Of a DNA stretch of 58,483 bases, positions 23,191-44,820 are shown in pieces. Position numbers and translations under genes: made by a program. Below the pieces are notes generated by a model that searched no databases, was not told the origin of the DNA, and worked only from the letters and a program-made list of their open reading frames with translations. The first letter of the stretch is position 1. The number at the start of each line of letters is the position of its first letter. This DNA is from Candidatus Sulfotelmatobacter sp. (GTDB lineage Bacteria; Acidobacteriota; Terriglobia; Terriglobales; Acidobacteriaceae). The stretch lies in NCBI GenBank assembly GCA_030039195.1, contig JASHQK010000509.1, positions 1 to 58,483 on the forward strand. Reading direction: 5' to 3'.

Positions 23191-23209
23191 GAGCGTCGCA
23201 TCCTCGTCG

Positions 23210-24764: not shown

Positions 24765-24765
24765 G

Positions 24766-25272
24766 TCAGATCCTCACGAAGGAATCTCGCGCGAGCGGAG
24801 GCACGTCGGTTGAGCGATCCACGAGTAGATCGCCGTCGTCATTGAGCCAGATGCGTTTCCAGGGAAGCGGCTTGGGCGCGGGGCCTTCAATCTTGTCTCC
24901 CGGCTTGCGTCCGTCTTGCTGGAAAGCGAAAAACTTGCTGCCATGGCATGGGCACGCGATGATGCCTTGCTCAGGCTTCCACGCCGTCAGGCAGCCGAGA
25001 TGCGTGCAGACTGCGCTCAGAGAGAAGAAACCTTCTTGTGAGTGAATGATGTAAATACCCGTTGTGACGTCGAGCGTGACTGAGTCGAGCGGATAGCGAT
25101 CCGGCTTGCCCGCATTGACCACGGGCGACGGCTCGTACAGGACGTTGGGCTCAAGATACTGGTAAGCAAATGCCGCTGTGCCGGCGGCAGCGATGCCCAG
25201 AGAACCGAGTCCGAGTTTTGCGAAGAACTGCCGGCGGCTAACGTCGTCTGTCTTTTTTGTCTCTTCTGCCAT
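24766..25272 (-). CDS. Rieske 2Fe-2S subunit with Tat signal
   Basis: [15 protein letters not shown] twin-arginine motif. CTHLGC...CPCHGSKF cluster ligands. An alternative upstream start at 25317 is possible. Confidence 0.9.
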
Positions 25273-25335
25273 AAAAGCCTTGGGGCCCCACGGTAAATGT
25301 CGCGCGCTTGGCGACATTCAGGGTGGTGATCTGAT

Positions 25336-27303
25336 TTACTTTTGCAATCCCGCGCCGATCGATGCGACCGAGATCAAGCCGGTCGGCTCAGCGGGAAGCA
25401 GGTTGTACGACTCCATCGTGATGGTGCCAACTGGACAACGCATGGCACACAAGCCGCAGCGAATGCAGCGCGTTTCATCCTTTAACATCGCCGATCCTGT
25501 CACGATTCCGAGTTCGTCTGCGGCGACTTCGTCGAGCTCCACGCCGAAGCACTCCTGGTTCTCGCTAATGTGCTTGACGGTTTCCAGATCGAAGGCAATC
25601 CGATCCAGCGAAACGAGCTCAAGACATTTTTCCGGGCAAACATCGACGCAGCCGCCGCAGAGGATGCACATGCTGCCATCTTCCGGAACACCTTCGAAGA
25701 CCGTATTGACCCAGCAGTGCAGGCAGCGCTGTGCCTCGGCTATGGCCGACTTCGCGTCGTAACCGATCTCGACTTCGGTCACGCCGGTGCGGCGCTCCAG
25801 AGGAAGCATCCGAACCGGTTGACGGTTGAGATCGAGGTACCCGAGTGGCATGGCATGCCGTTTGAGTAGCTCGACTTCGATAACCGGCTCCGGATGCTTA
25901 CCGCCGCTCAGATACTCGTCAATTCCGACAGCAGCACGCTTGCCGTCGCCAACGCTGTCGATAATCAAGCGCGGTCCAAACACGCAATCACCGCCGGCGA
26001 AAATTCCGGGGGTGGAAGTCATCAGCGTTTGTGGATTAACGGCGATCAGGCCGCGCGGAGAAAGTTCGACTTTGTCTTCCGGAGTGAAAAAGTCGAGGCG
26101 CGGTGCTTGGCCGATCGCCATGATGATCGTGTCACAGTTGATCTGGCTCTCGCTACCTTCATAAAAAGCGGGATTGAAACGCCGGTTCTGGTCGAAGACC
26201 CACTTCGTCTTGAGAGTCTCGAGAGCGCTGACTTTTCCGTCCTTACCCACGATTCGCTTCGGCCCGAATCCGGGATAAATGATGATGCCCTCTTCTTCTG
26301 CTTCCTCGATTTCTTCGAGTGCGGCGGGCATTTCGTTGCGCCGTTCCAGGCAAACAAGATTCACCTCGCGCGCGCCCATGCGCAACGCGGAGAGCGAGAT
26401 GTCAACCATCTCCTTGGTCGCGACCGCGGAAACGTTCTCAGCCGAGGGCTCGACATCCTGAATTCCGCTCGCGTGCTGGCGAACGACTTCGCGAGCCGCG
26501 GAACGCGCAACGTCCATGGCAACATTGCCGCCGCCGATCACGATGACTTTCTTCCCGATCGTGAACTTGTAGCCGAGATTCACGTTCAGCAGAAAATCGA
26601 TTCCTTTATGCACTCCGTCGAGATCTACGCCAGGAATGCTGAGATCGCGGCTGCGGTGCGCGCCGACCGCGATCAGCACCGCGTCAAAGCCCTGCCGGCG
26701 CAATTCGGAGATGGTGAAGTCGCGGCCTGCAGCATGATTCAGCTTGAGCGTGATATCTCCGGTCTCGAGAATCTCTCGGACTTGCGCTTCCACGACATCT
26801 CTCGGCAAGCGATATTCGGGAATGCCGAGGTACAACATGCCGCCCGCTACGGGAGCGGCTTCAAAGAGCGTGACCGAATAGCCCATCAACGCCAGATCAT
26901 GCGCCGCTGAAAGCCCGACCGGACCCGCTCCCACGACTGCGACCTTATATGGAAGTTTCGCCTGTGAACGCCTTTCCGTGATGCTGATGGGATGCTTCGA
27001 TTCCGGCCCGAATTGCTCGGTCAGGAAGCGCTTGAGGGCGCGAATGGAGATCGGCTTGTCGATCTCTCCACGGCGGCAAGCGGTCTCGCATGGATGCGCA
27101 CACACTCGGCCGCAGATACTCGCCAGCGGATTGGGATCACGCGCCAGGCGATAGGCTTCCTCGAAGCGTCCTTCGGCAATCAGGCCAACATAGCGCCCGG
27201 CGTTGGTGTGCGCCGGGCAGGCCATCATGCAGGGGAAGTTCGTGTGCAACCAATCCGCGTCGACCTTCTTATCTCGAAACCGTTTCAGCATGGCGTCACT
27301 CAA
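25336..27303 (-). CDS. GltD-like (glutamate synthase small-subunit family) NAD(P)H-dependent FAD/FeS oxidoreductase with C-terminal 2x[4Fe-4S] ferredoxin domain
   Basis: N-terminal Cys clusters (CPAHT..., CGRVCAHPCETAC). Rossmann motifs VAVVGAGPVGLSAA and VIVIGGGNVAMD. C-terminal CILCGGCVDVCP and CIRCGLCAMRCP. Confidence 0.85.
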   Translation of the reverse strand: MSDAMLKRFRDKKVDADWLHTNFPCMMACPAHTNAGRYVGLIAEGRFEEAYRLARDPNPLASICGRVCAHPCETACRRGEIDKPISIRALKRFLTEQFGPESKHPISITERRSQAKLPYKVAVVGAGPVGLSAAHDLALMGYSVTLFEAAPVAGGMLYLGIPEYRLPRDVVEAQVREILETGDITLKLNHAAGRDFTISELRRQGFDAVLIAVGAHRSRDLSIPGVDLDGVHKGIDFLLNVNLGYKFTIGKKVIVIGGGNVAMDVARSAAREVVRQHASGIQDVEPSAENVSAVATKEMVDISLSALRMGAREVNLVCLERRNEMPAALEEIEEAEEEGIIIYPGFGPKRIVGKDGKVSALETLKTKWVFDQNRRFNPAFYEGSESQINCDTIIMAIGQAPRLDFFTPEDKVELSPRGLIAVNPQTLMTSTPGIFAGGDCVFGPRLIIDSVGDGKRAAVGIDEYLSGGKHPEPVIEVELLKRHAMPLGYLDLNRQPVRMLPLERRTGVTEVEIGYDAKSAIAEAQRCLHCWVNTVFEGVPEDGSMCILCGGCVDVCPEKCLELVSLDRIAFDLETVKHISENQECFGVELDEVAADELGIVTGSAMLKDETRCIRCGLCAMRCPVGTITMESYNLLPAEPTGLISVASIGAGLQK

Positions 27304-29758: not shown

Positions 29759-29913
29759 ATTTCATTTTCCCGCGACTTAGACAGTTCTCGCTATTTTCTG
29801 TCGCAAGTTCGCAACAACGAGACATAGGAAGGCAGCCGAGAAAAATTTCCGGCTACTAGTCGTTTTCTGATAGTGACTCCATCTTGGCAGCTCAATACAC
29901 TGGCGTTTTTGTC

Positions 29914-30378
29914 ATGAAGCTGACCTGCACAACGCCACGAAGTCCAGTTCACAAAGGAAAGCTCGCTTCACCTAGCGGAGTATTGAATTGCGGGTGGATC
30001 CTCGCGCTACTGCCAGTACTGCTGTTGGGAAGTGTGCAAGTGGCGGCCGTCGACAGTCGGGGCGTTGAACATCCGGGCAGTATTCATGCGGATGACAATT
30101 GCTCTTCCTGTCACGCGGACAAGTCCAGAGGCAAATCAGTGCACTCGGCCATGGCGCTTCGGTGCACAGTCTGCCATCTGGCGGAGACTCAAGGTGACAT
30201 GACTACTTTGAGTTTGTTCATGCCAAAAACAAAGATCTGCTTTGCCTGCCATGAACAATCCCTGTCCGTACGAGAGCACCGTCCCGTCGCCCGGGGATTG
30301 TGCCTGGACTGTCACGATGCACATAGCAGCAGTCGCCGCAAATTGTTACGACAGCCAACCGATGCTTCCCGTAACTAA
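29914..30378 (+). CDS. Tetrahaem c-type cytochrome (c3/NrfB-like), membrane-anchored or secreted
   Basis: Start MKLTC; hydrophobic segment WILALLPVLLLGSVQVAA; four CXXCH (CSSCH, CTVCH, CFACH, CLDCH). Confidence 0.8.
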   Translation: MKLTCTTPRSPVHKGKLASPSGVLNCGWILALLPVLLLGSVQVAAVDSRGVEHPGSIHADDNCSSCHADKSRGKSVHSAMALRCTVCHLAETQGDMTTLSLFMPKTKICFACHEQSLSVREHRPVARGLCLDCHDAHSSSRRKLLRQPTDASRN

Positions 30379-30972: not shown

Positions 30973-32331
30973 CTAGTCACAAAGACCGTACTCGCGCAGC
31001 TTCCTGTACAAATTCCGCTCGCTGATTCCAAGAATCTTAGCTGCATTTCCGCGATGCCCCTTGCTGGCTTCTAGCGCCATTCGAATGTGAGCGAGTTCCA
31101 CTTCCTGGAGTGTCAGCTGCCGGGAGGCTTCTGAAACGGCCGTTGCCGGTGTCGTCTTTGTATTACGCAGGGAAGCAGGAAGGTGATCGGGTAGAACCTG
31201 AGATCCTTCGCAAAGCACGAGAGCAGCTTCCACCACATGCAGGAGTTCGCGTACGTTGCCTGGCCAGGAGTGTTGTCGGAGCAACTGCAGGGCCGCTTCG
31301 CTAATCCTTTTGTTAGAGCCGAATCGCTCGTTGAGCATGGTCGCGAAGTGTTGGGCCAGAAGAGACACATCATCGCCTCTTGCGCGCAGAGGTGGTATCT
31401 CCACCGTGATGGTGCTGAGGCGGTAGAACAAGTCCTCACGAAAAAGGCCCTGCCGCACCAAGACCGATACATCTCGATTTGTGGCGGCCAGGATGCGGAC
31501 GTCCACTCGAATTTCCCGCGTACTACCGACGTGGCGGAACGTGGAGGTGTCGAGCACGCGCAACAACTTCGTCTGCGTCGCCGGGCTCACCTCTCCGATC
31601 TCATCAAGGAAGATTGTTCCGCCGTTAGCGACTTCGAACAGGCCGGGTTTGGCTCGATCCGCTCCGGTAAACGCACCTCGCTCATGGCCAAACAATTCGC
31701 TTTGCAGCAGGCTCTCCTGCAGCGCGGCGCATTCGACAACTACGAACGGCCTTGACCGGCGAGGACTGCGGGCGTGGATCAACTTGGCGACTCGTTCTTT
31801 GCCCACGCCTGTCTCGCCGATAATAAGCACGGTCGACTCACTTGGGGCAACGCGGTCGATCAGATTGAGCAGACGCCGGAACTCTGGGCTGTCGCCGACG
31901 AAAGAATTGCTCAGATCCGGCGGAGTCAGGCCGCGCTCGAGAATTTTTGTTCTCTGGCGCAGAGATCGCCGCTCGATCGCTCGTTGTATGCGAACCTGAA
32001 GTTCGTCCAGCGGACAAGGCTTCACCACGTAGTCGCAAGCGCCAATGCGAATCGATTCGATGGCCGTGTCGATAGAACCATGTCCGGTGAACATAATCAC
32101 CTCGGTGGAAGCCGCGGCCGCCAGAATGGCTTTTAGCGTCTCCAGCCCGCCTATACCAGGTAAGCGCAGGTCCAGCAGCACGACTTCGGGTTCCAGCACT
32201 TCCACTCGCTCGATCGCTTCCTCACCCGTGCTCGCCGTGGAGGTTTCGTAACCGAGTCGACTCAATTCATCCGCCATCACTTGCCGGAAGGCAGAATCGT
32301 CATCGACCACGAGGAGAGACGGTGGTTTCAT
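30973..32331 (-). CDS. Sigma-54-dependent response regulator (NtrC family: REC + AAA+ + Fis-type HTH)
   Basis: Receiver domain (LLVVDDD...DLRLPG), Walker A GETGVGKE, GAFTGA sigma-54 contact motif, C-terminal HTH (GNAAKILGISERNLYRKL). Confidence 0.92.
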   Translation of the reverse strand: MKPPSLLVVDDDSAFRQVMADELSRLGYETSTASTGEEAIERVEVLEPEVVLLDLRLPGIGGLETLKAILAAAASTEVIMFTGHGSIDTAIESIRIGACDYVVKPCPLDELQVRIQRAIERRSLRQRTKILERGLTPPDLSNSFVGDSPEFRRLLNLIDRVAPSESTVLIIGETGVGKERVAKLIHARSPRRSRPFVVVECAALQESLLQSELFGHERGAFTGADRAKPGLFEVANGGTIFLDEIGEVSPATQTKLLRVLDTSTFRHVGSTREIRVDVRILAATNRDVSVLVRQGLFREDLFYRLSTITVEIPPLRARGDDVSLLAQHFATMLNERFGSNKRISEAALQLLRQHSWPGNVRELLHVVEAALVLCEGSQVLPDHLPASLRNTKTTPATAVSEASRQLTLQEVELAHIRMALEASKGHRGNAAKILGISERNLYRKLREYGLCD

Positions 32332-34238
32332 CTCTCGACCTTGAGTTGAGGGCTGGTATTGATTGCCGGCATCACGACTGTGAACGTAGACCCTTTACCG
32401 AGAGCACTTTCGACTGCGATGGTGCCTCCCCAACTCCGGACTGCGTTGAGCGACAAGAACAGGCCGAGACCTGTGCCCCCTTGGCGAAGACTGAAAAAAG
32501 GTTCGAAGATCTTTTGCTGGTACTCTGGCGCGATCCCGCAGCCTTCGTCAGTGACGCGAATGTGGATTGCGTCGCCGCCTTGGGTGGCGACGATAACCTT
32601 GGCCCCGGCCTTTGACGCCTGAATCGCGTTGAGCAGGAGATTGACGAGCAGGTTCTGTAGTTCGGCCTCGTCCGCTCGGACATGTAGCGTTGTCGTGCAG
32701 AACTGCACCTCAACGGTCACAGAAGCGGTGCGAGCCGTAGGCTCGACCAGCCTCCGAGCAGCAGCGATCGCGGCATTGAGATCCACGATTTCACCACCCG
32801 ATCGCTGTCCGCGGGAAAGGCGGAGAAAATGTTGCGTAATTCCCCTGCAGCGTAGAATCTGCTCGCGCGCGATCGCCGCCTGTTCAAGAATTCGAGCCTG
32901 ATCCTTGGGACAGTCCTGGCCGCCTTGAGTCTCACGAAGGATGCCTTCTACGCACATTAGGGTCGTTGCCAGGGGCGTGTTCATCTCATGGGAAAAGCCA
33001 GAAGCAAGTACCCCTACCGATGCTAAGCGGTAGGACTCCGCGAGTTTTGCCTCGGCCGCACGTCGGTCGGAGATGTCTCGCCAGACTTCCACGACTTGGG
33101 TTAGACGACCAGAGGCGTCCAAAATGGGCGAAGCATGAATTTCCTCCCATGCCACAGTGTTGTTCCCCGCTTTGCGTTCGCAGATCCGAACCTGACGCGC
33201 ACCGGCTTTCAGACATGCGAGCGTGGGACAATCGGACAAGTTGCACGGGCCTGGCTCCAGTTTGTAGCAGCTGCAGCCCAGAACTTGCTCACGAGAACTG
33301 TTGGCGCGCAGCAAGAATGCGTCATTGGCTGCAATGATCTTTCGTTCCCCGTCGAGTACTACAATCCCGTCATCAATACTGTTGATCACAGTTTCCAGCC
33401 GCTCCCGCTGAGTGCGGACTTCTCCCACCAGGTGGGACACAGAATCCGCCATTTCATTGAACTCTTTCGCGAGCCAGGACAGCGTATCAGAGCCTTCCGT
33501 GGGTACGCGGCGTTCGAGATCGCCTTGAGAGATCAGGCGCGCCGTGTTCTCAAAACGCTGGAGGCGACGCAATACCGCCACGCGGATCACCAATGCGATT
33601 GCTCCGACAATAACGAAGGTCAGCGCTCCAGTTCCGGCCACCATCCAGCGCAGGTCGCGGGTCATCGCCTCCCTGATCTCTCCGGCGTTGTAATCCAGAA
33701 TGAGGACGCCATTGATCTTCTGCTGTGGACTGTGGCAGCGCTGGCATTCCTGGCGGTTACGAATTGGCACTACAGTTCGAAGAATGGTTCCACCTTTCGT
33801 CTCGATTACCCGGCTCGAGCCACGGCGTTCTGGCGGATCACGATGGCAGGCTTGGCATGTGGGAGAGTCGATCCTGAACTCATTCTGGGTGACTCCCGGC
33901 TTACTCGAATAACGCTCTGTGCCATTGCGATCAATCACGACGAGCTGCTCCACACGAGATTGCTTGCCGAAGCTCTCGATCATCTGCGCGATCAGAGTGC
34001 GGTCATTGCTCATCATCTGATGTTCGAGCGCGGTGCGGATCAATTCGCTTTCGGCAAGCGCGCTAGTGCGGGCCGTGTCGAGGAGGCTGTGAAAATGACG
34101 GGTGGAAAAAACGTAGGCGGCAACTGTACAGGCTACTACCACCGCCACCGTGACACCGAGCGCGAGGCCAACGGTCATGCTGGCAAAACGCAGCTTCATG
34201 ATGACGGCACCAGGTCGGCGGGATGATGGCACATGCAC
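32328..34238 (-). CDS. Sensor histidine kinase with periplasmic domain carrying two CXXCH motifs, HAMP, Cys-rich PAS, HisKA/HATPase
   Basis: Two TMs flank a ~140-aa loop containing CQACH and CQRCH. PAS has GCSCYKLEPGPCNLSDCPTLAC. H-box FSHEMNTP. ATGA overlap with the response regulator gene. Confidence 0.9.
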   Translation of the reverse strand: MHVPSSRRPGAVIMKLRFASMTVGLALGVTVAVVVACTVAAYVFSTRHFHSLLDTARTSALAESELIRTALEHQMMSNDRTLIAQMIESFGKQSRVEQLVVIDRNGTERYSSKPGVTQNEFRIDSPTCQACHRDPPERRGSSRVIETKGGTILRTVVPIRNRQECQRCHSPQQKINGVLILDYNAGEIREAMTRDLRWMVAGTGALTFVIVGAIALVIRVAVLRRLQRFENTARLISQGDLERRVPTEGSDTLSWLAKEFNEMADSVSHLVGEVRTQRERLETVINSIDDGIVVLDGERKIIAANDAFLLRANSSREQVLGCSCYKLEPGPCNLSDCPTLACLKAGARQVRICERKAGNNTVAWEEIHASPILDASGRLTQVVEVWRDISDRRAAEAKLAESYRLASVGVLASGFSHEMNTPLATTLMCVEGILRETQGGQDCPKDQARILEQAAIAREQILRCRGITQHFLRLSRGQRSGGEIVDLNAAIAAARRLVEPTARTASVTVEVQFCTTTLHVRADEAELQNLLVNLLLNAIQASKAGAKVIVATQGGDAIHIRVTDEGCGIAPEYQQKIFEPFFSLRQGGTGLGLFLSLNAVRSWGGTIAVESALGKGSTFTVVMPAINTSPQLKVER

Positions 34239-34354: not shown

Positions 34355-34370
34355 TGGAACAGCAATTGCA
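34355..34370 (+). promoter_or_regulatory. Sigma-54 promoter TGGAAC-AGCAA-TTGCA
   Basis: GG/GC in the exact -24/-12 register; 12 of 14 consensus positions (YTGGCACGR-N3-TTGCW). 30 nt upstream of the ATG at 34400, which has an AAGGAGGG Shine-Dalgarno. Confidence 0.65.
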
Positions 34371-34399: not shown

Positions 34400-34726
34400 A
34401 TGGAAATGCTATTGATGGGTTTGTGCGTGGCCGTATTTGGAGTGGGAGTCGCAGCTGCTGCCTTTGGAGCCGCTACGCGCTCGGAATCGCCCAATTCCGC
34501 TGAACAACCCAGGCTTCCGTTAGTCAAGGCAACTGTGCCGACGCGCTTTTTCTCGGATCGTGTTCCAACCCCGCCATCCATCCCGTCCCGACAAGTGCCC
34601 ATTGAAGTCCTGCTCCTGCAAATTGAGAACCACGTCCGTATGGAACAGGCGGCCGCAGAGTCCTTTCTGGCACTTCCCACACACGAGCAGCTTCACAGCA
34701 AAACCAATTCGCCGTTTGTCAACTGA
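34400..34726 (+). CDS. Small membrane-anchored hypothetical protein, first gene of the second Rieske/cyt b operon
   Basis: N-terminal TM (LLMGLCVAVFGVGVAAAAFGAA), strong SD, no recognised family. Confidence 0.5.
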   Translation: MEMLLMGLCVAVFGVGVAAAAFGAATRSESPNSAEQPRLPLVKATVPTRFFSDRVPTPPSIPSRQVPIEVLLLQIENHVRMEQAAAESFLALPTHEQLHSKTNSPFVN

Positions 34727-34737
34727 CGGAGAGACTC

Positions 34738-35202
34738 ATGACACATGAACTTCTAAATGGTCTCTCTTCCGCCGAGGGCGAGCAGGTTTTGAAGCTCGGC
34801 CACAGAGTGATCGTCCCCAGCGAAGCAACGCTATTCCAGCTGGGAGATCAGGCCGATCGGCTCTTCCTGGTTGAACGCGGACGAATCAAGCTGACATTGC
34901 CAATGCAGGTGCGTAAGCGAGAACAGGATGTTTTTGTGGAGGAGAGAGGTCCCGGCCAGACCGTCGGCTGGTCAGCCTTGATTCCGCCTTATCGATTTAC
35001 CCTCACCGCGACCGCCGTTTTGCTCGACGCAGAAGTGATCGCCTTCCCACGGGAGGCGCTGCTCAGGTACTTTGCAGCCAATCCAGGAGCGGGACACAAG
35101 ATTGCTTTCAATCTTGCGGTCGTGATTGGACATCGCCTGCAACTGTTCCAGACGATGTGGCTGCGCGAGATGCAGCGCACGGTGGAAGTACGTTCCGCGT
35201 GA
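34738..35202 (+). CDS. Stand-alone cyclic-nucleotide-binding (cNMP/CAP effector) domain protein, no HTH
   Basis: LFQLGDQADRLFLVERGRIKL...GPGQTVGWSALI...; 154 aa, too short to include a DNA-binding domain. Confidence 0.8.
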   Translation: MTHELLNGLSSAEGEQVLKLGHRVIVPSEATLFQLGDQADRLFLVERGRIKLTLPMQVRKREQDVFVEERGPGQTVGWSALIPPYRFTLTATAVLLDAEVIAFPREALLRYFAANPGAGHKIAFNLAVVIGHRLQLFQTMWLREMQRTVEVRSA

Positions 35203-35218
35203 CGAAGAGACCTGACCT

Positions 35219-35719
35219 ATGCAAACGGTAAGCGAGACAACCCCCTCCGGCAGCAAACAACAAGGTGAACGCCTCGACCATTTCAACAGTACACGCCGCC
35301 GCGTCATTGAGTATTTTCTCGGTGGTGGCTTGTTGGCTTCGTTCGTTTCATTTCTCTACCCGGTGTTGCGCTACCTCATACCTCCTGCGGTAGCTGATCT
35401 TGGCGGTGACGAAATCGTCGCCGCCAAGATCGGCGAGCTAAAGCCGAATTCCGGCAAGATATTCCGATTCGGCAACCATCCTGGCTTGTTGATCCTAAAC
35501 AGCGATGGTACCTATCGTGCACTTTCCGCTACTTGTACCCACCTTGGCTGCACCGTGCAGTATCGCGCCGATCTTCGCCAGATCTGGTGTGCCTGCCACA
35601 ACGGAATCTACGATCTGAACGGTCGCAATGTTTCCGGTCCTCCGCCCAGACCGCTGGATGTGTTCGATGTCCACGCGCGCGGAGATGAGATTGTCGTCAG
35701 CAGAAAGCGGGAGGCGTGA
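35219..35719 (+). CDS. Rieske 2Fe-2S subunit (b6f/PetC-like)
   Basis: N-terminal TM; [10 protein letters not shown]...CACHNGIYD. Confidence 0.9.
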
Positions 35720-36801
35720 ATATGTTCGCTACCCTCCGTCACTGGCTCGACGAGCGGTTTGATTGGGATGACCTGACCGCTCCGCTTCGCCATAAGACAG
35801 TCCCCTCTCATCGCCTGTCATATTGGTATTTCCTCGGGGGCATTACGCTTTTCCTTTTCGGGATTCAGGTGGCGACCGGCATCTTGTTGCTGCTCTACTA
35901 CCGGCCCGGGGCAAACGAAGCGTTTGAGAGCGTGCAGTACATCATGACCCGGGTGCAATTTGGCTGGCTGATCCGGTCCATCCATTCCTGGTCCGCGAAC
36001 CTAATGATCTTTACTGCCTTTGCGCATATGTTCAGCGTGTTGTTCCTGAAGGCCTACCGCAAACCGCGTGAGCTTACGTGGGTCAGCGGTGTACTCCTCC
36101 TGTTTCTTGTCATGGGATTCGGCTTCAGCGGCTATTTATTGCCGTGGAACACTTTGGCTTTTTTCGCCACAAAGGTCGGCACGGAAATCACCGGACAGGT
36201 TCCGATCATCGGCAAGCCCATAATGATCTTTCTTCGCGGCGGCGAAGAGGTGACAGGTGCAACACTGACAAGGTTCTTCGGATTCCATGTCGCGGTTCTT
36301 CCCGGCTTAGCGACTGTCTTGCTTATGCTGCACTTGTTACTGGTGCAGCGCCTGGGCATCAGTGTTCCCCCGAAACTTGAAGCGCAATGGAACGCGAATC
36401 CATCTGCGAAGAGCCAGATGCAATTCTTCCCCAACTTCTTGTTGCGGGAGATGATGGCTTGGTACGTTGCTCTGGCAATGCTGGGAGTGCTGGCAGCGGT
36501 ATTCCCATGGAACCTTGGCGTGAAAGCCGATCCGTTCGTACCTGCGCCAGCGGGAATCAAACCCGAATGGTACTTTCTCTTTATGTTTCAGACATTGAAG
36601 CTCATTCCTTCTAGGGTTTGGTTCGTGGATGGAGAAGTCTTGGGGGTTCTGGGCTTCGGTCTCGTGGGGCTCGCGTGGCTTGTGTTGCCCTTTTTCGAAA
36701 GTTTCTCCTCCTCACACACGAAACGCCGGATTACTCAATTTACAGTCTTTGCTTTCGCGTACGTCGCAGGCATGAGCGTTTATGGCTATCTTGCAAAATA
36801 G
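35716..36801 (+). CDS. Full-length (fused) cytochrome b
   Basis: 361 aa; [41 protein letters not shown]; ATGA-type overlap with the Rieske gene. Confidence 0.9.
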
Positions 36802-38050
36802 ATTGGGCGCGCTTGGCGCGCTCTGCGGTGTGGTTTTGGCCGGGCTTGTTTTATTTGTTGCATGTCTGGCCCACGCGCAAACCTCGAACTCCTGTCTGGA
36901 TTGTCATGCTGGTCTACCAGACCCTCTGGGAGTCAGCCAGGAAAAGTTTAGCCAGGACGTACACGCCCAGAAAGGGCTGACTTGTGTTAGCTGTCACGGC
37001 GGCGACCCAACCAGCGACGATCCGGACAAGGCCATGAACAAGAAAGCGGGGTGGAAGGGCAAGATCGAGCGCAAGCAGATCCCCGAGTTATGCGGAAGTT
37101 GTCATTCCGATCCCTATTACATCCGGCAGTTCAATCCAGGCTTACGAACTGACCAGCTCGACCAGTACCGTACCAGCGTGCATGGTAAACGTTTGGTTGC
37201 GGGAGACACAAAGGTAGCCGTGTGCATCGATTGCCATAGTGTGCATGACATAAGGGCTCCCAGCGATCCCCGCTCGACGGTGAATCCGGTCAATGTGGCG
37301 ACCACCTGCGCAGGCTGCCATGCTAACGACGGTTATATGAAGGGATACTCCATTCCTACCGATCAATTCGCAAAATATGACGTGAGTGTACATCATGAGG
37401 CATTAGCTGTGCGGGGCGATTTGAGTGCACCAACCTGCTCGACGTGCCACGGGAATCATGGTGCAGTGCCTCCAGGAGTAGACAAAGTCCAGAATGTCTG
37501 CTCAAACTGTCACGCGTTCCAGGACCAAATGTACGAAAAGAGTTCTCACAAGAAAGCCTTTCAAGCTTCCTCCCTGCCAGGGTGTGTCGTGTGTCACAGC
37601 AACCATGCGATCACCTACCCCAGCGATGCAAAACTCGGAACCGGTCCAGAAGCGGTCTGCATGCGTTGTCACACTCCCGGCGACAAATGCGATCAAGCCC
37701 GAGCCCGATTGCAGGCGAAACTAATCAGCCTCGACTTGGCGATCAAGAAAGCGGACCAAGCGCTCGCCCTTGCGGAGTCTTCCGGCATGGAGGTAGGCGA
37801 AGCGCGCATGGCACAGGCTCAGGCCCGAGATTCGCTGACCAAGGCTCGAGTCACAATCCACAGTTTCCAGGAAAGCCTAGCGGATCAGGACATTCAGGCG
37901 GGGCTGAAAATTGCCGCAGAGGATCTGCAAGCCGGCCAGGCAGCCATGGTTGAGCGCAACCGTCGCCGTGCCGGCTTGGGGGTATCCCTCGTCGCAATAG
38001 GAATGGTACTGGCTGGGCTTCGGCTGTACATCAAGAAGATAGAGCGCTAG
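36782..38050 (+). CDS. Nonahaem cytochrome c with C-terminal coiled coil and TM anchor
   Basis: Signal peptide. Nine CXXCH (CLDCH, CVSCH, CGSCH, CIDCH, CAGCH, CSTCH, CSNCH, CVVCH, CMRCH). C-terminal [17 protein letters not shown]. Confidence 0.85.
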
Positions 38051-38078: not shown

Positions 38079-38114
38079 GCCCCAGAGCTTGTCTGATTCT
38101 GGGGCATTTTTATT
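38079..38114 (+). terminator. Rho-independent terminator of the second Rieske/cyt b operon
   Basis: GCCCCAGA-N11-TCTGGGGC followed by ATTTTTATT. Confidence 0.75.
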
Positions 38115-38433
38115 GCTTGGGGGAACGATCAACGACACGTCCAAGAGGCACAAAACTCCGTTAGCCTACCCGTGCCACTCTTCTCCTGTCTGTGACCATA
38201 CGCACGCGAGAAAAAAGCCTCAGAGTAGTGTGATTCCTCTGAGGCATTCGAGCTTGGGGCGAAAATACTATTCATACAACCTTAACGCAGACTGTGCCTA
38301 TGAGTAAGGAGTACGAGGGTACATTACGGTTACGGGAAGACGATACCTTGCCGCTCGCGTGGGTCAGAGCGACATATCATGGCGGGCCGACCGCGGTGCC
38401 AGAAATCGAGCCACCCGGCTGCAGTGACTGCAA

Positions 38434-38835
38434 ATGTCCGTACGACGGGAGCGTGACGCACACGGCTGGCCTTCGTTTAATGAGTACGTCGTTTGCGCAA
38501 TTGGCGAGCAGAGTCTGCAGAGGGAGTTGACCTATGTTGGAAAAGGTGTCGAACGACTTCTCAGCGCCTATCAGGAAGGATTGTTGTCGATTGAGCGGCT
38601 GCGTGAACGTATGCCGGCGTTGCGCCAGCGGCAACAGGTACTGAGTGCTGAGCTGAGGGCGATCGTTGATCAGACCAATGATCGCGCTGCATTCTTGCGT
38701 TTGGGCGAAACCCTCACGGCATTCCTGGAGCGCTTGCGCAGCGCTGCGGGAACACTTGGTGTCATTGAACACCAGAGAATCGTGCGACTGCTCGTTGAAG
38801 ACGTCCCGGTCGGTGATCGCAAAAAGCCCCGATAG
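38434..38835 (+). pseudogene. 3' fragment of a large serine recombinase gene
   Basis: ...GVERLLSAYQEGLLSIERLRERMPALRQRQQVLSAELRAI...FLRLGETLTAFLERLRSAAGTLGVIEHQRIVRLLVEDV matches the C-terminal coiled-coil of large serine recombinases. The catalytic N-terminus is absent. Confidence 0.6.
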
Positions 38836-38913
38836 GCACTGTACCCAAAGGAGCGCGCAAGAAAGCGCTGATGGAAGTGTTGAGAAATATAAAGTACTAC
38901 TTATATTTCTCAT

Positions 38914-39507
38914 ATGCAATATATTCAACGAAGACTGGCAGCTGTGCTGCTGGTTGCGGCTCGGCATTTCCCCGCTGTGGTTGTGACTGGTCCACGCCGT
39001 GCTGGCAAGACCACTCTTCTGCGCAAGCTCTTTCCTAAAGCCCAGCATGTACTGCTCGAGGATCCTGATGTTCAGGAACGGGTGCGGAGTGATCCCCGCG
39101 CTTTCCTAGAGGCACTCCGTCCTCCGGTGGTCTTCGACGAGATTCAAAACACGCCCGAATTACTTGCGTATGTCCGTACAGTCATCGACACGGGCCGGCG
39201 CCGGATGGGGCAGTGGTTGTTCACCGGCTCCCAAGAAGCCCCACTGATGCAAGGCATCAGCGAATCGATGGCGGGACGAGCGGCTATCCTTCAGCTTCTA
39301 CCTTTCAGTCTTTCGGAAACCAAGAAAGTGAATCTGCTACACGGGGGGTTCCCAGAGGTGCTCGCTCGGCCGGAGGCTCGTGGCCTTTGGTTTGCTTCCT
39401 ACCTGCAAACGTATCTGGAGAGAGACGTTCGAGCGATCACGAACGTGCGAGACTTGGCAACGTTTCGCCGTTTTCTTGCACTCCTGGCAAGCCGTCAGTG
39501 TGCATGA
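38914..39507 (+). pseudogene. Truncated AAA+ ATPase (AAA_14/DUF4143 family)
   Basis: Walker A GPRRAGKTTLL and DEIQ Walker B. The ORF stops at LLASRQCA*, about half the usual length, and the DUF4143 part is missing. Confidence 0.65.
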
Positions 39508-39599
39508 CAATGATCCTCCTTGTGTGAACTGCCGAGTTGTAATCTACTCGGCGGCGAACCATCTCATTAATCCCCATTTCGCTCATTGACCCGGCAACC

Positions 39600-39629
39600 A
39601 GGGTTTGGATCGCAAACCCTTGTTTTCGG
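39600..39629 (+). terminator. Rho-independent terminator-like hairpin
   Basis: AGGGTTTG-GATCG-CAAACCCT followed by TGTTTTCGG. Confidence 0.5.
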
Positions 39630-39853
39630 TAGTTACAATAAAGGCCGCTTTAACTGAGGTGGCCGCGCCATTTAATCGCCGGGCCAAAATCGCAAAGCAG
39701 AAGGCTAGCGTTCTAAGCGCGAAAGGGAAAGCCATGAAGATTCTTCTAGCCGTTGATGACTCCAAGTTTTCAGAAGCTGCGGTGAAGAGCCTCGCTGATC
39801 GAGTGGTTAAAGAGTTCCGTTTGCGAGGGATGAGGTTGCACGAGGATGACAAC

Positions 39854-40226
39854 ATGAACTGCTTCAATCGACATTTGCTGGCAACAGTAGTTATCTTCTT
39901 TTTGCTCGGAGCGCTTGGTTTTACTCAGAATTCAATTTCACCAAGCGAAGCTAAATCTCACGTGGGAGAAAGAGCTACAGTCTGCGGATTGGTAGTGGGA
40001 ACGCACTACGCAGCCCAAAGTCGTGGAAACCCCACTTTTATCAATCTCGATAAACCATATCCGAACCAGATTTTCACAGTGTTAATTTGGGGCAGCGAAC
40101 GCCCAAAGTGCGGCGATCCCGCAGGCATGTATCAGATGAAACACATCTGCGCGACCGGAAAGATCAGCGACTACAAGAGAGCCCGAAATAATCGCCTACG
40201 AGCCCTCTCAAATCAAGATTCAGTAG
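39854..40226 (+). CDS. Low-GC secreted hypothetical protein, apparently frameshifted near the 3' end
   Basis: Signal peptide MNCFNRHLLATVVIFFLLGALGFTQ. After ...GKISDYK one extra nt (around 40178) separates it from the frame encoding EPEIIAYEPSQIKIQ*. Length 373 nt = 3n+1. Confidence 0.45.
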
Positions 40227-40506
40227 CCAAGCCTGCAAGGAGAACGCGCTTGAAACAGGAGATCTCGGCCCGGTTCAAACCTCTTCCTTCTTAAAGAAAT
40301 CGGGACGGCGAGTGTATCAACGTGCCTATCGGGAGTGCGCCATCATCAACAGCCGGACGTTTCCTCCGGCACGTGCAATCCAGGAGTTGGTCACGGCATG
40401 GAAGCAGTTGAGGAAGTGGCGGAAGTAGGCCAGTGGCAATTTTGCATGGGCACGATTCTGGCAATCCAGGCTCACCGCGACAGAGTCGAACGCCTCGTAC
40501 TTGGGC

Positions 40507-40857
40507 TTATCGTCCAGCCCAATCCTCGGGCGGGTCGGAAATTCCCCAGACGTTTCCTGGCTCGTCTATGCCTATTCCCAGAAGCCAAAAAGGCTTTTCA
40601 AATTTCCCGAGCGAAATCGAACTGACTATTCTGCCGGTGATTTTTGTAGCAGCGGGCAAGCCTTCGAGTACCACTTTTGAGCCGACATCCACTGCCCGAT
40701 TGAGTTTCAATGAGCAACCCTGCAAGTTGACCAGCACGATCAGGCACCGTTGAGAAAATGAGCAACTCTCGTCGGCGCTGGTCAAGATCGCGTCTATCTC
40801 ACACGGCACTCGTGTCCCTAAGCGCTCTGTCGTCCTCTTTACTCCTGTCGTTTCCAT
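40507..40857 (-). CDS. PilZ-domain protein
   Basis: TRVPCEIDAILTS...CLIVLVNLQGCSL...GSKVVLEG pattern of single-domain PilZ proteins; start METTGV. Confidence 0.65.
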   Translation of the reverse strand: METTGVKRTTERLGTRVPCEIDAILTSADESCSFSQRCLIVLVNLQGCSLKLNRAVDVGSKVVLEGLPAATKITGRIVSSISLGKFEKPFWLLGIGIDEPGNVWGISDPPEDWAGR

Positions 40858-41504
40858 GTTCCCAGTAAGGAGAACGTAAACTTCCATGGCAGCCAGGGGA
40901 AAAGTGCAGCCTGTTCGGATTTCGTAACAGGCACTTGTACGCCGGAGTCTCCGGGGTGCAGTTCCCGCATTCGTTTCGTTCCAAACCTGTCAGTGCGGGA
41001 GCAGCGCGACTGTCTCGACGAATCGGTGAAGATCGTCCAACTCAATGCCACGGTTAGGCGCTGGCGATCGATTAGAACAGGATGGAACCCCGCAGGGCGA
41101 GCGGCTCAGTCTCTGAGGACAACTGTCGCAAATGTATGGTCCGCCGCCGGACTGGCAAGAATGGAAACAGATCGAGACCGATGTCGAGGCGATCAGGGAC
41201 TGGTGGTCATGTCCAGTCCAGCGACTTCCTTATTCTTTATTCTTTTCTGAGACAAAGGTTTTTTCTTCCGCCGAGCAGCCGCTGTCGCCATGCTTCCATA
41301 CGCCCTCTCGAGGAACGATTCATTCGCTCGGTGCAGGTTGGGCGTTCTCGTTTCAGCCGATGCTGCCACCTGATTTGCGACCTGCAGTTCCGTTTCAGCG
41401 GGTGGAACGTGGGCCAGGCGATTGACGCAGTCACCGGAACTCGGCTTTGGCTTTTGTCTTGTATCTTCCTGGAACGATTTTGTTTTTGTTTTGCCGTTTT
41501 GTCT

Positions 41505-41700
41505 TTACGCGGCTGCCGCAACTGTCGTTCGGCTGCTGTTATGCAACGGGTCGTACACTTCTCCGCTTATCCACAGATGGTGCAGCAACACCGCCAGCTT
41601 TCTAGCTGTGGCGACAATCGCTCTCTTCTCCCCCTCTTTCCGCCGCGCTCCGCTAGCTTCAGGCCCCAGCGCCTGGGATCGCAGTCCGGACCGAATGGAC
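41505..41700 (-). pseudogene. 3' remnant of an IS110-family transposase gene
   Basis: Minus-strand frames give WGLKLAERGGKR and, after a frameshift, KRAIVATARKLAVLLHHLWISGEVYDP...*. This is the conserved C-terminus of IS110/IS902 transposases; no N-terminal part is present. Confidence 0.6.
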
Positions 41701-41943
41701 TCAGAATATCTTGTGCTCCTTGCACGATACGCGATGAGGGGGACGAGACTTGCGAAACATAGGCGTGCTGGACATAAGCGAAAAAATCACAGCCACTGGG
41801 TCAATCAAAAGGCTCTGCCGTTGAGCTTATAATGTTCATGTCTGGCGGACGAGTTGTGAGGCTCCGCTAGTTCCTGCCGATCCACTCGAATTCCAGCCCG
41901 AACCTCGCTTGCTGTCCGCCAGCCAGCCGGAGGTGCAAGGCCG

Positions 41944-42351
41944 ATGGCAACGATGGCAAAATTGCCCGTTCTTGCAGTTCTTGCGGTCACGATGTGTGCA
42001 GCACTGTCCTGCGGAACCTGCCCGCCCGTTCCTTCCATTACTTCCGTCTCGCCCGCCGCTGTAACCGCTGGAGGCAGCCAGTTCGTCCTGACCGTCAATG
42101 GCGACGACTTCCGCCATGACGCAGTGGTGGAGTGGAACGGCTCCCCTCAGGTGACGACCTTCGCCAACAGCCATCAGTTACTTGCCGCAGTCACCGCTGC
42201 CGACATTGCACAGCCGGGCACCGTGTTGGTCTCAGTATTTAATCCGCCAGAAGTCGGAGGCACGACATTTTCCGGTGCTATCGGAGCGACATCCACAACG
42301 GTGTGCAGCGGCAAGGACTCGAACGGCTTCTCCTTCACGATCAAACCGTGA
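41944..42351 (+). CDS. IPT/TIG-domain lipoprotein
   Basis: Lipobox AALSC; PSITSVSPAAVTAGGSQFVLTVNGDDF... is typical of IPT/TIG Ig-like domains. Confidence 0.7.
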   Translation: MATMAKLPVLAVLAVTMCAALSCGTCPPVPSITSVSPAAVTAGGSQFVLTVNGDDFRHDAVVEWNGSPQVTTFANSHQLLAAVTAADIAQPGTVLVSVFNPPEVGGTTFSGAIGATSTTVCSGKDSNGFSFTIKP

Positions 42352-42407
42352 CCGTGGATTGAAGGAGCGGAAACGCGGGATGTTTACGAACCCTTAGTGA
42401 ACGTTAC

Positions 42408-42751
42408 CTATTCTGGATGGAAATGTAGCTCGATCAGTTCCTTGGATTCGGCGGCGGCTGGAGCAAATTTCCATCGTTTTATGGTTTTATGGCACCCACG
42501 GAAACCTCAACGAGCAAAGGGCTGCCCCCCGGTTGGACGGATTTCACCGAACCGTCCGGTGCCACGACAGCGTACACCTTGACAGTCCCGGCGATATTCA
42601 TCCTTCTCGCCATCTCCGGGTAGGTGGGGTCTAGTTTGCGAATGAGCTTGCGTCCATTCTCGTTGGAGGATTGCTGTGTTTGAGCAAATACCGCAAGTTC
42701 AAAGCATCACGAGAACAGAAGAGACAAAACCAGAAAGCCAAGAATCCGCAT
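42408..42751 (-). pseudogene. Small secreted TonB C-terminal-domain protein, inactivated
   Basis: MRILGFLVLSLLFS-TGA-CFELAVFAQ...PTYPEMARRMNIAGTVKVYAVVAPDGSV...GAIK, then out of frame RWKFAPAAAESKELIELHFHPE*. In-frame TGA at 42707-42709. 8-bp tandem duplication TTTTATGG x2 at 42477-42492. 344-8 = 336 nt restores the frame. Confidence 0.65.
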
Positions 42752-43533
42752 GATCGCGATTCCCGAAAAGGTGAAAGTGTCATTCCGACACTTCACTTCT
42801 GTACGCGAATTTTAGAGGATTGCCCAATCGACCTGTAATGACTAATGTCACCGACGTGCCGGGGATTTCTGGTCTGCGACTGCCGAAGGCATTCGTGTCT
42901 GGCTCTAACGTTGAGTGTAGCTGTGATTGTTACGCAGAATGCAGTCCGGCAAGACATCAAAAGAGGATCGTAAAGAGATGAGGGGAGACGGCATCGGCGG
43001 ACATTAAACGGAGCGGCATCAAGCGTGCTCTTTCTTGTACATCTCTAACGCCGATTTCGCGTCTCCAAGGTCTTTCTCCAATCTCGCAAGCTCGTTCTTG
43101 TCAAATTTAGGGCGTGCGCGTTCGGTCACTAGCATAAGCTCTCACGTAGCAACCCGCGTCTCCGGTTGATCGCGCTTGGAGTCCATTGGGCAAATGATAC
43201 GCCAGTACACTGTATGAAAGTAAATCGGCGGCGGCGTAACGACATCGAATATTGCGGCTTTGCGTTTTGCGGGTTGTCAAAGGGGAATCGGGATGAGAAT
43301 CGTAGTTCCCCTCAGAAGACGAAACGCCAAAGTGCGCCAAACACATGTGATTGACGACAGAACGCCCTTCTCTTGTCCTCGGAGTGATTCCGATCACTGA
43401 CAAAACCTTCCGGTGAATCTAAGGTTCGCGCCATGTACAAGTCGGCTCGGGGATAGCCCGCGCCTGACACGGTATCCCCCGCCCAAGTCAATTCCGTCTC
43501 AACTCGAATTCGAAAGCAAGGAGGAATTCGCCT

Positions 43534-43857
43534 ATGTTTGCGCGTGTGGTTGAATTTGTTCCCAAGTATGAGAAGAAGGATGAGTTCATCAAGACAATCA
43601 AGAACGAGGTTCTGCCCATTCTGAAGAAGCAGGTTGGCTTCCTCGAAGTCCTTCCTCTGTTTCCGGAAATGAAGAATGAAAAAGCCGTATACGTCACCCT
43701 ATGGGCGGAGAAGAAGGACGCGGAGCGTTATCACAAAGAAGTGTTCGACAGGGTCGAGGACATCGTCAGACCGTACCTGGCCTCCCCGATTACGTGGAAG
43801 CTCTACAACGTTGAGACCACGCTCTGCGAGCACTTCGTCAATGCGCTTGCAGCGTGA
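43534..43857 (+). CDS. Small ABM/Dabb-like (ferredoxin-fold) protein
   Basis: 107 aa, strong SD AAGGAGGA, MFARVVEFVPK...VYVTLWAEKKDAERY pattern. Confidence 0.6.
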   Translation: MFARVVEFVPKYEKKDEFIKTIKNEVLPILKKQVGFLEVLPLFPEMKNEKAVYVTLWAEKKDAERYHKEVFDRVEDIVRPYLASPITWKLYNVETTLCEHFVNALAA

Positions 43858-43882
43858 ATGGTTATTTGCGGTTCAAGGGCCG

Positions 43883-43912
43883 GAGCCGGGGTCGTGCTCC
43901 GGCTCTTCTGTA
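43883..43912 (+). terminator. Weak terminator-like hairpin
   Basis: GAGCCGG-N9-CCGGCTC followed by TTCTGT. Confidence 0.35.
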
Positions 43913-44322
43913 GAACCGAACCTTCGGACTTTACGAAGGCTGCTTTTTTGACACAGCCAAGTTGAGAGTGGGCTGGGAACTGATCACCGTGTCCACATCA
44001 ACCTGCCAACACACTTCACCGGACAGTTCGCTGAAGTGCCCGAGGTTACTGCCATGGAAGCCACATTCTTCAAGTTCGCCTTTTTTGTCCTAATCGGACT
44101 AGCCATGCTTGGCCTACTGACCATGGCGACTGTCGCTATTGTTTTTTGGCTAAGAATCCTATGGATTTGGCTCAGGGCATACGGGAGAACCGCCAAGCCG
44201 GGACACGTATGAACTGTTGGCGTGATCTGGGCGGGGAACAGTCGCGTTCACTGCCGATCCGTGTTCTTGTGGTGCGGGAGCCGATCCTTAGTCGCGATCA
44301 ATCGTCCGCTGAGGGAGATGCT

Positions 44323-44820
44323 ATGACAAGCGAATCTGCATCCGCCTATTTGCGCTACGCCCTTCTACAACACACTGAGAAAATTCGTGAGCCGAAGTCT
44401 ACCGTGCTGTTCCGAAGGGGAGACAGGGCTTGCGGCATGTTTGTCGTTCTCACCGGGAGGGTGAGCTTGGACTTGGGCGTGGATTCGATTGTCGGTCGCT
44501 CCTATGGTGCAGGTGCGCTGATCGGTTTGCCGTCAACGCTCACCCGGCAAAACTACAGTATGACGGCCACGGTGACCGAGGATGCGGAACTTGGTTTCCT
44601 GCCTCCTGAAGCATTGGAGTCCTTGCTGCGTCAGCACCCCGATCTCTATCCGCCGCTGCTTTTCTTCCTTGGAGAGAAGATTGCGGAAAGTCGTGAAAAT
44701 GAGGGGACGTTGCTCGATAGACGTGTGCCTGAAACAGGCGCGACCGGGAACCGAGACACCGTGATGGTGGCTTGCTGTCAAGCGAAGGAGGTTGAGATGG
44801 AGGCTCGGACCGATGACTAG
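44323..44820 (+). CDS. Stand-alone cyclic-nucleotide-binding domain protein
   Basis: Start MTSESAS after GAGGGAG; TVLFRRGDRACGMFVVLTGRVSL...GAGALIGLP cNMP-binding core; no HTH. Confidence 0.75.
   Translation: MTSESASAYLRYALLQHTEKIREPKSTVLFRRGDRACGMFVVLTGRVSLDLGVDSIVGRSYGAGALIGLPSTLTRQNYSMTATVTEDAELGFLPPEALESLLRQHPDLYPPLLFFLGEKIAESRENEGTLLDRRVPETGATGNRDTVMVACCQAKEVEMEARTDD

Follow-up and report, generated by a model that had tools for sequence, protein, structure and literature searches.

Introduction

Multihaem partners of Rieske/cytochrome b pairs are known from Geobacter (PMC2825233), where the cluster GSU2930-2937 (ExtK-S, with ExtO as the Rieske protein and ExtP as cytochrome b) includes cytochromes with 2, 10, 12 and 5 haems (PMC2825233, PMC5877670). 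Here we describe a locus from Candidatus Sulfotelmatobacter sp. (Acidobacteriota, order Terriglobales) in which genes for a Rieske protein, a cytochrome b and a nonahaem cytochrome c (the triad) follow a pair of small genes and a divergent kinase and regulator. The locus lies in a stretch of 58,483 nt (contig JASHQK010000509.1, assembly GCA_030039195.1), hereafter the window. An orthologue of the triad in the metagenome-assembled genome (MAG) SbA1, SBA1_490004-490006, has been listed as complex III with an 'associated cytochrome gene' (Hausmann et al. 2018, Supplementary Table S2d). The SbA MAGs were reported to be without iron-respiration genes (PMC6018796). Our literature searches returned nothing relevant on a Sulfotelmatobacter Rieske protein, on the pairing of a nonahaem cytochrome with a Rieske protein or on the components of the cassette described below, and the searchable literature held no biochemical study of members of either family.

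With moderate confidence we read the locus as one unit of seven genes, in which a regulatory half is joined to a nonahaem quinol-oxidising complex and the leading pair, a small membrane protein and a stand-alone CRP-type domain, would belong to the regulatory half. Among the evidence for this reading are the conservation of the unit, the predicted sigma-54 promoter in front of the pair, and the recurrence of the pair ahead of other modules.

Results

The features of the locus, in window coordinates, are as follows.

30973..32331, minus strand: sigma-54-dependent response regulator, 452 amino acids (aa), with receiver, AAA+ Sigma54_activat and HTH_8 domains (Pfam)
32328..34238, minus strand: sensor histidine kinase with HAMP-PAS-HisKA-HATPase domains (Pfam) and two CXXCH in its periplasmic loop
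34255..34290, plus strand: two 15-bp palindromes (CTGACAAACAGTCAG, CTGACATTGTGTCAG), a candidate enhancer (upstream activating sequence) for the response regulator, from reading of the sequence
34355..34370, plus strand: predicted sigma-54 -24/-12 promoter TGGAAC-N5-TTGCA, from reading of the sequence and conservation
34400..34726, plus strand: orf108, small single-pass membrane protein, 108 aa, from transmembrane prediction and motif conservation
34738..35202, plus strand: stand-alone CRP-type effector domain, like those that bind cyclic nucleotide monophosphates (cNMP), 154 aa (PF00027, E 5.7e-11)
35219..35719, plus strand: Rieske [2Fe-2S] subunit, 166 aa (PF00355, E 5.5e-12)
35716..36801, plus strand: fused cytochrome b (b6 plus subunit-IV equivalent), 361 aa (PF00033, E 1e-55; PF00032, E 6e-10)
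36782..38050, plus strand: nonahaem cytochrome c subunit, 422 aa (nine CXXCH, several Pfam multihaem families)

An operon of five plus-strand open reading frames (ORFs) between 34400 and 38050 had been proposed from the sequence alone (the original prediction), and our coordinates agree with it. The genes are tightly packed, with successive junctions of 11 nt and 16 nt followed by overlaps of 4 nt and 20 nt. The five-gene block is kept gene for gene in ~70 other species-level genomes, at 64-93% amino-acid identity, and is therefore far from a chance arrangement. The sequencing runs that matched were of peat and soil DNA from 6 studies. A survey of the leading pair covered 80 related loci from 80 species-level genomes, nearly all of them Acidobacteriota MAGs. 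The pair was present in all 80, the Rieske gene in 72, cytochrome b in 70, the nonahaem gene in 66, the kinase in 63 and the regulator, upstream, in 60. As no gene is conserved 3′ of the nonahaem gene among related loci, the conserved unit comprises seven genes. What had been said of the individual products also largely stood, namely a small membrane protein of no known family (no Pfam or NCBIfam match, one N-terminal transmembrane helix), a cNMP-domain protein lacking an output domain (PF00027 is its sole Pfam match), a b6f-like Rieske protein with a fused, full-length cytochrome b (by best matches; the latter matches both PF00033 and PF00032 and contains PEWY), and a 422-aa cytochrome with a C-terminal transmembrane anchor, in which a script counted exactly nine CXXCH.

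A predicted sigma-54 circuit in front of the operon

The features of a sigma-54-dependent operon are present, with a -24/-12 element of correct spacing and an adjacent regulator carrying Sigma54_activat (E 7e-67; NtrC/AtoC-like by NCBIfam, under cut-offs). Taking TGG-N9-TGC as the criterion and shuffled upstream regions as background, the element was found ~45 nt before the orf108 start in 59/63 loci with a kinase, against 2% of shuffles. Moreover, a CTGAC-N5-GTCAG palindrome element is found in 54/80 related loci and is conserved in the upstream alignment. The periplasmic loop of the kinase, between transmembrane segments at aa 23-41 and 205-223, contains CXXCH at aa 128 and 165, and both are kept in 60/61 homologues. 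The loop matches PF21563 (E 7e-7), whilst its best matches in the PDB, 3B47 and 3B42, are weak (E 0.005) and aligned on CXXCH.

The leading pair is portable

A cNMP-domain protein had been put forward as a peculiarity of a bc operon. This did not survive comparison, as the same pair heads NrfD-type modules in other Acidobacteriota. In Solibacteraceae (L097) and three more acidobacterial families (G396, G238, G309), the regulator, kinase, orf108 and cNMP-like genes keep their arrangement and lead into genes for a tetrahaem cytochrome, a 4Fe-4S protein and an NrfD-type membrane subunit instead of Rieske/cytochrome b. The tallies behind this comparison include one unpublished genome (G064), which gave one weak match and on which we make no specific claim. 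A more distant cassette runs in the order kinase, regulator, small transmembrane protein, cNMP-like protein, c7-type cytochrome, molybdopterin oxidoreductase, FeS protein, NrfD and cytochromes; its cNMP-like protein has 36-39% identity and its small transmembrane protein carries an HVRxE...F..PS motif (by hidden Markov model). In a few Terracidiphilus-like loci, typified by L090, the next gene after the pair encodes a sirohaem nitrite/sulfite reductase and there is no membrane complex. Because the pair is portable across modules, and because the triad occurs without it in 19/20 loci from other lineages, we read the pair as part of a control circuit and not as a subunit of the bc complex.

The pair could instead supply true accessory subunits, placed on the cytoplasmic (n) side of quinone-reactive membrane complexes and gating their activity, by analogy with the NAD(P)-binding module of the window's first complex (see below). 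Such a role would suit two genes that open the same sigma-54 operon, closely spaced and behind a strong Shine-Dalgarno sequence, that always adjoin a quinol-linked module, and one of which encodes a transmembrane anchor. We nevertheless consider it unlikely: the membrane partners are wholly different between loci (cytochrome b versus NrfD), there is no membrane complex to gate in the L090-type loci, the pair comes directly after kinase and regulator in the distant cassette, and 19 of the 20 triads inspected in other lineages dispense with it.

Orf108 lies immediately 5′ of the cNMP-like gene in 80/80 loci. In its product, an N-terminal transmembrane helix (aa 4-24) and a 45-residue C-terminal motif, VPIEvLLlQIENHVRxEQAAAEsF..P...LHSKTtSPFVN (34595-34723), are conserved on either side of a variable Pro-rich linker. 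The Shine-Dalgarno sequence of the gene, AAGGAGG, is 8 nt before the ATG. Substitutions fall mainly on third codon positions (1574 versus 663 and 502). This bias, together with its retention in every one of the 80 loci, led us to reject the idea that orf108 is a non-coding artefact. It matched no family in Pfam or NCBIfam, and the ESM Atlas returned only its own acidobacterial clusters.

A CRP-like domain with an altered pocket

The 154-aa protein scores 42.7 bits against PF00027 (gathering score 27.5). Its AlphaFold2 model, with a predicted local distance difference test (pLDDT) of 97, has a CRP-type beta-barrel and a 38-residue C-helix, and the best Foldseek matches are the effector domains of GlxR and CRP (TM-score 0.76-0.78). 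The protein ends at the C-helix (aa 153) with no helix-turn-helix, and its homologues are of 150-175 aa, so that it falls outside the CRP/FNR transcription factors. Its phosphate-binding cassette is altered (GWSALIPPYRFT, 34966-35001), and the protein belongs to a subfamily of stand-alone proteins of ~160 aa with the cassette GWSAL(V/I)xP(H/Y)R. Trp78 is invariant in 66 members of this subfamily. In HMMER alignments against Thermus CRP and yeast PKA-R it occupies the position of their cassette Glu, within a cassette that is shorter by two residues. The pattern of functional cNMP-binding domains (GELAL...PR[AS]A, with its Glu and Arg) is absent, and the cassette Arg lies outside the columns conserved at ≥90% in the subfamily. 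Binding of cNMP is therefore doubtful, since the cassette Glu is replaced by an invariant Trp. The ligand is probably not a cyclic nucleotide, and 'cNMP-binding' is best taken as a label for the fold. Sensing by an FNR-like Fe-S cluster or by haem was rejected, as the protein has no Cys and no His in columns conserved at ≥90%.

In the reading that follows the original prediction, the protein would be a real receptor of cyclic AMP or cyclic GMP that links a second messenger to a respiratory branch. A Pfam score well over threshold, a confidently modelled CRP-like fold and R86, close to the cassette position, all speak for that reading. They are outweighed by the substitution of the cassette Glu in all 66 members, the shortened cassette and an Arg that is not strictly conserved. 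Moreover, many CRP-family effector domains bind other ligands, e.g. haem, 2-oxoglutarate or glutathione. We regard a cyclic-nucleotide receptor as improbable.

Two further ORFs with only a cNMP_binding domain are present in the window, at 44146-44820 (plus strand) and 50845-51363 (minus strand; Pfam E 9e-14 and 2e-14, respectively). They are near pta/ack-like and mdh/citrate-synthase genes. The second matches the profile of the subfamily (5.6e-27), the match ending at profile position 144, short of the C-terminal end of the profile.

Rieske protein and cytochrome b

The Rieske protein has the features of the bc1/b6f superfamily, with the cluster boxes CTHLGC (aa 106, 35534-35551) and CACH (aa 124, 35588-35599; the second box reads CACHNG) and an N-terminus that carries a twin-arginine motif (RRR, aa 26-28, 35294-35302) and a transmembrane anchor (aa 32-50). 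Its best NCBIfam matches are the PetC models of b6f (E 7e-21, under the model cut-offs). Cytochrome b likewise shows the features of the superfamily: two His pairs in helices B and D (His90/His104, spacing 13; His191/His206, spacing 14) and a Qo motif of the PxWY type, PEWY (aa 283-286, 36562-36573). Hydropathy gives ~7 transmembrane helices. A 14-residue spacing of the helix-D His and seven transmembrane helices distinguish the b6 type from bc1. The best PDB matches are cytochrome b6 (E 9e-60) and then, over the full length, Aquifex bc1 (6KLS). Cytochrome b6f proper is another matter, for there is one fused ORF of 361 aa, Phe stands in place of the Cys of haem ci (SYWYFLGG), the nonahaem protein replaces cytochrome f, and the NCBIfam b6 and PetC scores of the window proteins are under cut-offs. 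By sequence, then, the cytochrome b is b6-like, though outside b6f proper.

The nonahaem subunit

The nine CXXCH of the 422-aa protein are at aa 38, 68, 104, 148, 176, 219, 240, 268 and 293. A signal-like N-terminus is followed by the haem domain (36893-37672), a three-helix region (37685-37975) and the anchor (37976-38032; aa 399-417 by hydropathy). Conservation of ligands was measured over 24 homologues of 64-82% identity. All nine CXXCH are invariant, as are eight extra His (61, 134, 155, 204, 226, 256, 275 and 360), whilst the invariant Met85, Met186, Met250, Met336 and Cys303 are candidates for the ninth ligand. All nine haems thus appear to be six-coordinate, and a ligand set sufficient for this would suit an electron wire, not a catalytic site. 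In place of the 'long C-terminal coiled coil' that had been expected, three helices are predicted, the second of which bears the invariant His360. AlphaFold2 models the C-terminal 120 residues at pLDDT 70-94, with helices at 302-333, 339-361 and 364-421, and the third runs into the anchor. On this model, a helical module that lies next to the membrane and supplies a haem ligand is likelier than a coiled coil. The protein is not a member of the decahaem DmsE/MtrA family (TIGR03508: 55.9 bits, cut-off 192.2; nine and not ten CXXCH), and its profile gave weak local matches to PDB sequences (best 6I5B, E 0.004).

Cys303 (37688-37690, within GDxCDQAR) is the sole invariant Cys outside CXXCH and comes just after haem 9. 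It could be a ligand in a His/Cys haem. Ligation of this kind occurs in DsrJ, TsdA and SoxA and, if true here, would be notable for a lineage with dissimilatory sulfur genes.

Two differently built complexes

A first complex is encoded on the minus strand of the window (21148-27303) by genes for a GltD/Fer4 protein, a Rieske protein, a split cytochrome b and a 680-aa cytochrome with 8 CXXCH. The original prediction of a second, differently built complex, with a multihaem subunit at the place of cytochrome c1 or f, was upheld. Between the two cytochromes b, identity over the N-terminal domain is 41%, and APWY in the first stands against PEWY in the second. The Rieske proteins are 35% identical over 65 residues, and the c subunit of the second complex has nine CXXCH. 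In a maximum-likelihood tree, the cytochrome b of the second complex groups with all triad cytochromes b across the phylum (support 97/95). The copy of the first complex pairs with one on contig C629 (100/99), and that of contig C546 forms a separate long branch. The count of two Rieske/cytochrome b complexes needs correction, as the genome holds four cytochrome b loci. A recent duplication of the first complex was rejected, the cytochromes b being old paralogues in the tree. Since they are deep paralogues in separate, well-supported clades, simple redundancy of the two complexes is unlikely. Specialised quinol:acceptor or donor:quinone routes are plausible.

The triad is widespread in Acidobacteriota

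We surveyed 401 evenly drawn Acidobacteriota genomes from 227 genera for homologues of the nonahaem protein (E ≤ 1e-40). Homologues were found in 102/401 genomes and 83/227 genera, and their identity drops roughly with taxonomic distance (57-70% within the family, 47-57% within the class and 33-50% within the phylum). At all 20 loci inspected the order is Rieske, cytochrome b, cytochrome c, and in 20/20 the c subunit has nine CXXCH. Many of these loci adjoin cytochromes with 11-19 CXXCH. The operon that had been singled out as an unusual bc operon is real, but its triad is not unusual: as judged from these homologues, it is a common, phylum-wide acidobacterial form of Rieske/cytochrome b. The SbA1 orthologue is on the same contig as one of our related loci (L023).

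Four loci (L106, L113, L114 and L116) have two Rieske-cytochrome b-nonahaem triads in tandem, the second strongly divergent and separated from the other by a few kb. The proteins of these second triads have 30-38% identity to those of the window, and their cytochrome b falls in a separate clade.

Surroundings of the locus

Just after the operon, the window has ~6 kb (38100-44000) with only short or fragmentary ORFs, several of them with no Pfam match, including a fragment of an AAA_14 ATPase (38914-39507). The context 3′ of the operon is different in every related locus, which places the seven-gene block at a variable spot. Between the two respiratory operons, a plus-strand gene (29884-30378) encodes a 164-aa multihaem cytochrome (Paired_CXXCH_1, c7-like), which is a possible soluble periplasmic partner of either complex.

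In L079, L081, L082 and L092, genes for a sirohaem-type nitrite/sulfite reductase (NIR_SIR, 565 aa) and a sirohaem synthase lie 3′ of the operon; in L090 (9627-12698) they come directly after the pair. The Terracidiphilus-like loci L079, L082, L084 (8400-9250) and L100 (10500-11300) have an insertion of ~600 bp between the cNMP-like and Rieske genes. It is flanked by a direct repeat of ~100 bp from the 3′ end of the cNMP gene (a stub of 34-40 aa, 65-74% identity). L090-type loci have the first 620 bp in common with these loci and are missing the triad. The insertion looks like a recombination scar. Lastly, two contigs with the cassette at ~66% identity are labelled as Limnocylindrales (L085) and Verrucomicrobiia (L096) MAGs. 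Because the range of the cassette is otherwise purely acidobacterial, mis-binning seems more likely than transfer.

Discussion

We propose that the haem-c histidine kinase and the NtrC-type regulator most likely activate the sigma-54 promoter at 34355-34370. The last three genes would yield a menaquinol-oxidising Rieske/cytochrome b complex of the b6 lineage, in which the C-terminally anchored nonahaem cytochrome takes over from cytochrome c1 or f. The three-helix region, His360 included, probably lies beside the membrane together with haem 9, where the two would accept electrons from the Rieske head, and the other eight haems would relay them into the periplasm. The conserved block has no gene for the electron partner, and the adjacent 11- to 19-haem cytochromes of other classes suggest candidates. 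Orf108, tethered to the membrane, and the CRP-type domain protein, presumably a dimer, are most likely a cytoplasmic pair that serves the kinase/regulator circuit in sensing or feedback. They may act by feedback on the activator, as a second cytoplasmic input or through tethering at the membrane. Among Acidobacteriota, the same four-gene cassette accompanies quinol-linked modules of three different kinds.

A complex that runs mainly in reverse, from periplasmic donors (Fe(II) via a Cyc2-like system, or reduced humics) uphill to the quinone pool, is very unlikely: a Cyc2-like cytochrome-porin, a cupredoxin and a tetrahaem cytochrome are encoded 4-6 kb away, and bc complexes do run uphill in Acidithiobacillus, but these neighbouring genes belong to the other operon, outside the conserved seven-gene block, whilst PEWY and CACHNG (Gly where high-potential Rieske proteins have Ser) are uninformative on direction.

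Several observations count against the regulatory and quinol-oxidising reading that we prefer. The orf108 and cNMP-like genes share an operon with structural genes, as accessory subunits would. In 14/80 loci the pair has neither the kinase nor the sigma-54 promoter, so that its link to the kinase/regulator circuit is not obligatory. In the 154-aa protein of the window itself, R86 supplies a cassette Arg, which may still allow nucleotide binding. No gene for a haem-copper or other terminal oxidase was found close to the triad in five genomes checked, and no porin-cytochrome is present within the conserved block. The haem domain is modelled at pLDDT <50, so that the order of the haems and the role of His360 are drawn from conservation. 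The search of sequencing runs listed peat and soil DNA runs only, and no RNA run.

Taken further, the two halves of our reading can be linked in a single claim, which we offer tentatively, as a possibility rather than an expectation. The pair would be a new kind of membrane-tethered, nucleotide-independent sensor that joins the haem-c kinase and sigma-54 activator in a portable cassette, plugged in before interchangeable quinol-oxidising modules (Rieske/cytochrome b-nonahaem, tetrahaem-FeS-NrfD or molybdopterin-FeS-NrfD). The triad would be a proton-motive quinol oxidase with a periplasmic haem wire, through which peat Acidobacteria could gain a main access to extracellular or humic-substance respiration.

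Acidobacteriota dominate peat and acidic soils, and their anaerobic respiration is poorly known. About a quarter of the sampled acidobacterial genomes encode the nine-haem subunit, and a Q-cycle complex built with it could be a major energy-conserving route from menaquinol to acceptors in the periplasm or outside the cell. Moreover, the cassette of haem-c kinase, sigma-54 regulator, small membrane protein and CRP-like domain offers a handle on the switching of respiratory branches, and it marks out a family of 'cNMP' domains whose signal is probably a different one.

Comparison with known systems

The Ext cluster of Geobacter resembles the operon in that a Rieske protein and a b6-like cytochrome b stand with multihaem c cytochromes in place of c1 or f, and a periplasmic or extracellular role in electron transfer is presumed for both. 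The resemblance stops short of membership, as the window cytochrome b scores 215.7 bits against the ExtP model NF040969 (cut-off 290) and the nonahaem protein matches the ExtM model NF040943 only weakly (29.8 versus 800 bits). The window differs further in having a cytochrome b fused to the subunit-IV part, a single, C-terminally anchored nonahaem cytochrome, no porin-like ExtI and other regulation.

With the b6f complexes and the b6c complexes of Firmicutes and Heliobacteria the operon shares its best sequence matches, seven transmembrane helices, the 14-residue helix-D spacing and PEWY. In contrast to these, its cytochrome b is unsplit and has Phe for the ci Cys, and a nonahaem subunit is found instead of cytochrome f or a dihaem cytochrome c. 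Complexes of the anammox type (Kuenenia kuste4569-4574) and the first complex of the window offer a parallel in that one organism has several different Rieske/cytochrome b complexes with multihaem subunits. The second complex departs from both in its fused cytochrome b, in PEWY rather than APWY, and in the absence of an NAD(P)/FAD/FeS subunit.

As to the regulatory half, the 154-aa protein has the beta-barrel and C-helix of CRP/FNR effector domains, including that of the stand-alone Gmet_1532 (PDB 3MDP) from a metal reducer (Foldseek TM-score 0.69-0.78). It differs from them by the missing helix-turn-helix, by the invariant Trp for the cassette Glu, and by its obligate pairing with a small membrane protein, mostly together with the haem-c kinase and sigma-54 regulator. 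The kinase loop, by its match around CXXCH and to PF21563, recalls the haem-c PAS-like domains of the Geobacter chemoreceptors GSU0582 and GSU0935 (PDB 3B42, 3B47). The likeness is weak (E 0.005), and here the loop is carried by a HAMP-PAS histidine kinase and has two CXXCH versus one.

A Rieske/cytochrome b pair with a multihaem c subunit is therefore already known, and the SbA1 orthologue has been listed as complex III. What had gone undescribed is the control cassette of four genes, which includes the Trp-pocket CRP-like domain and its small partner in the membrane.

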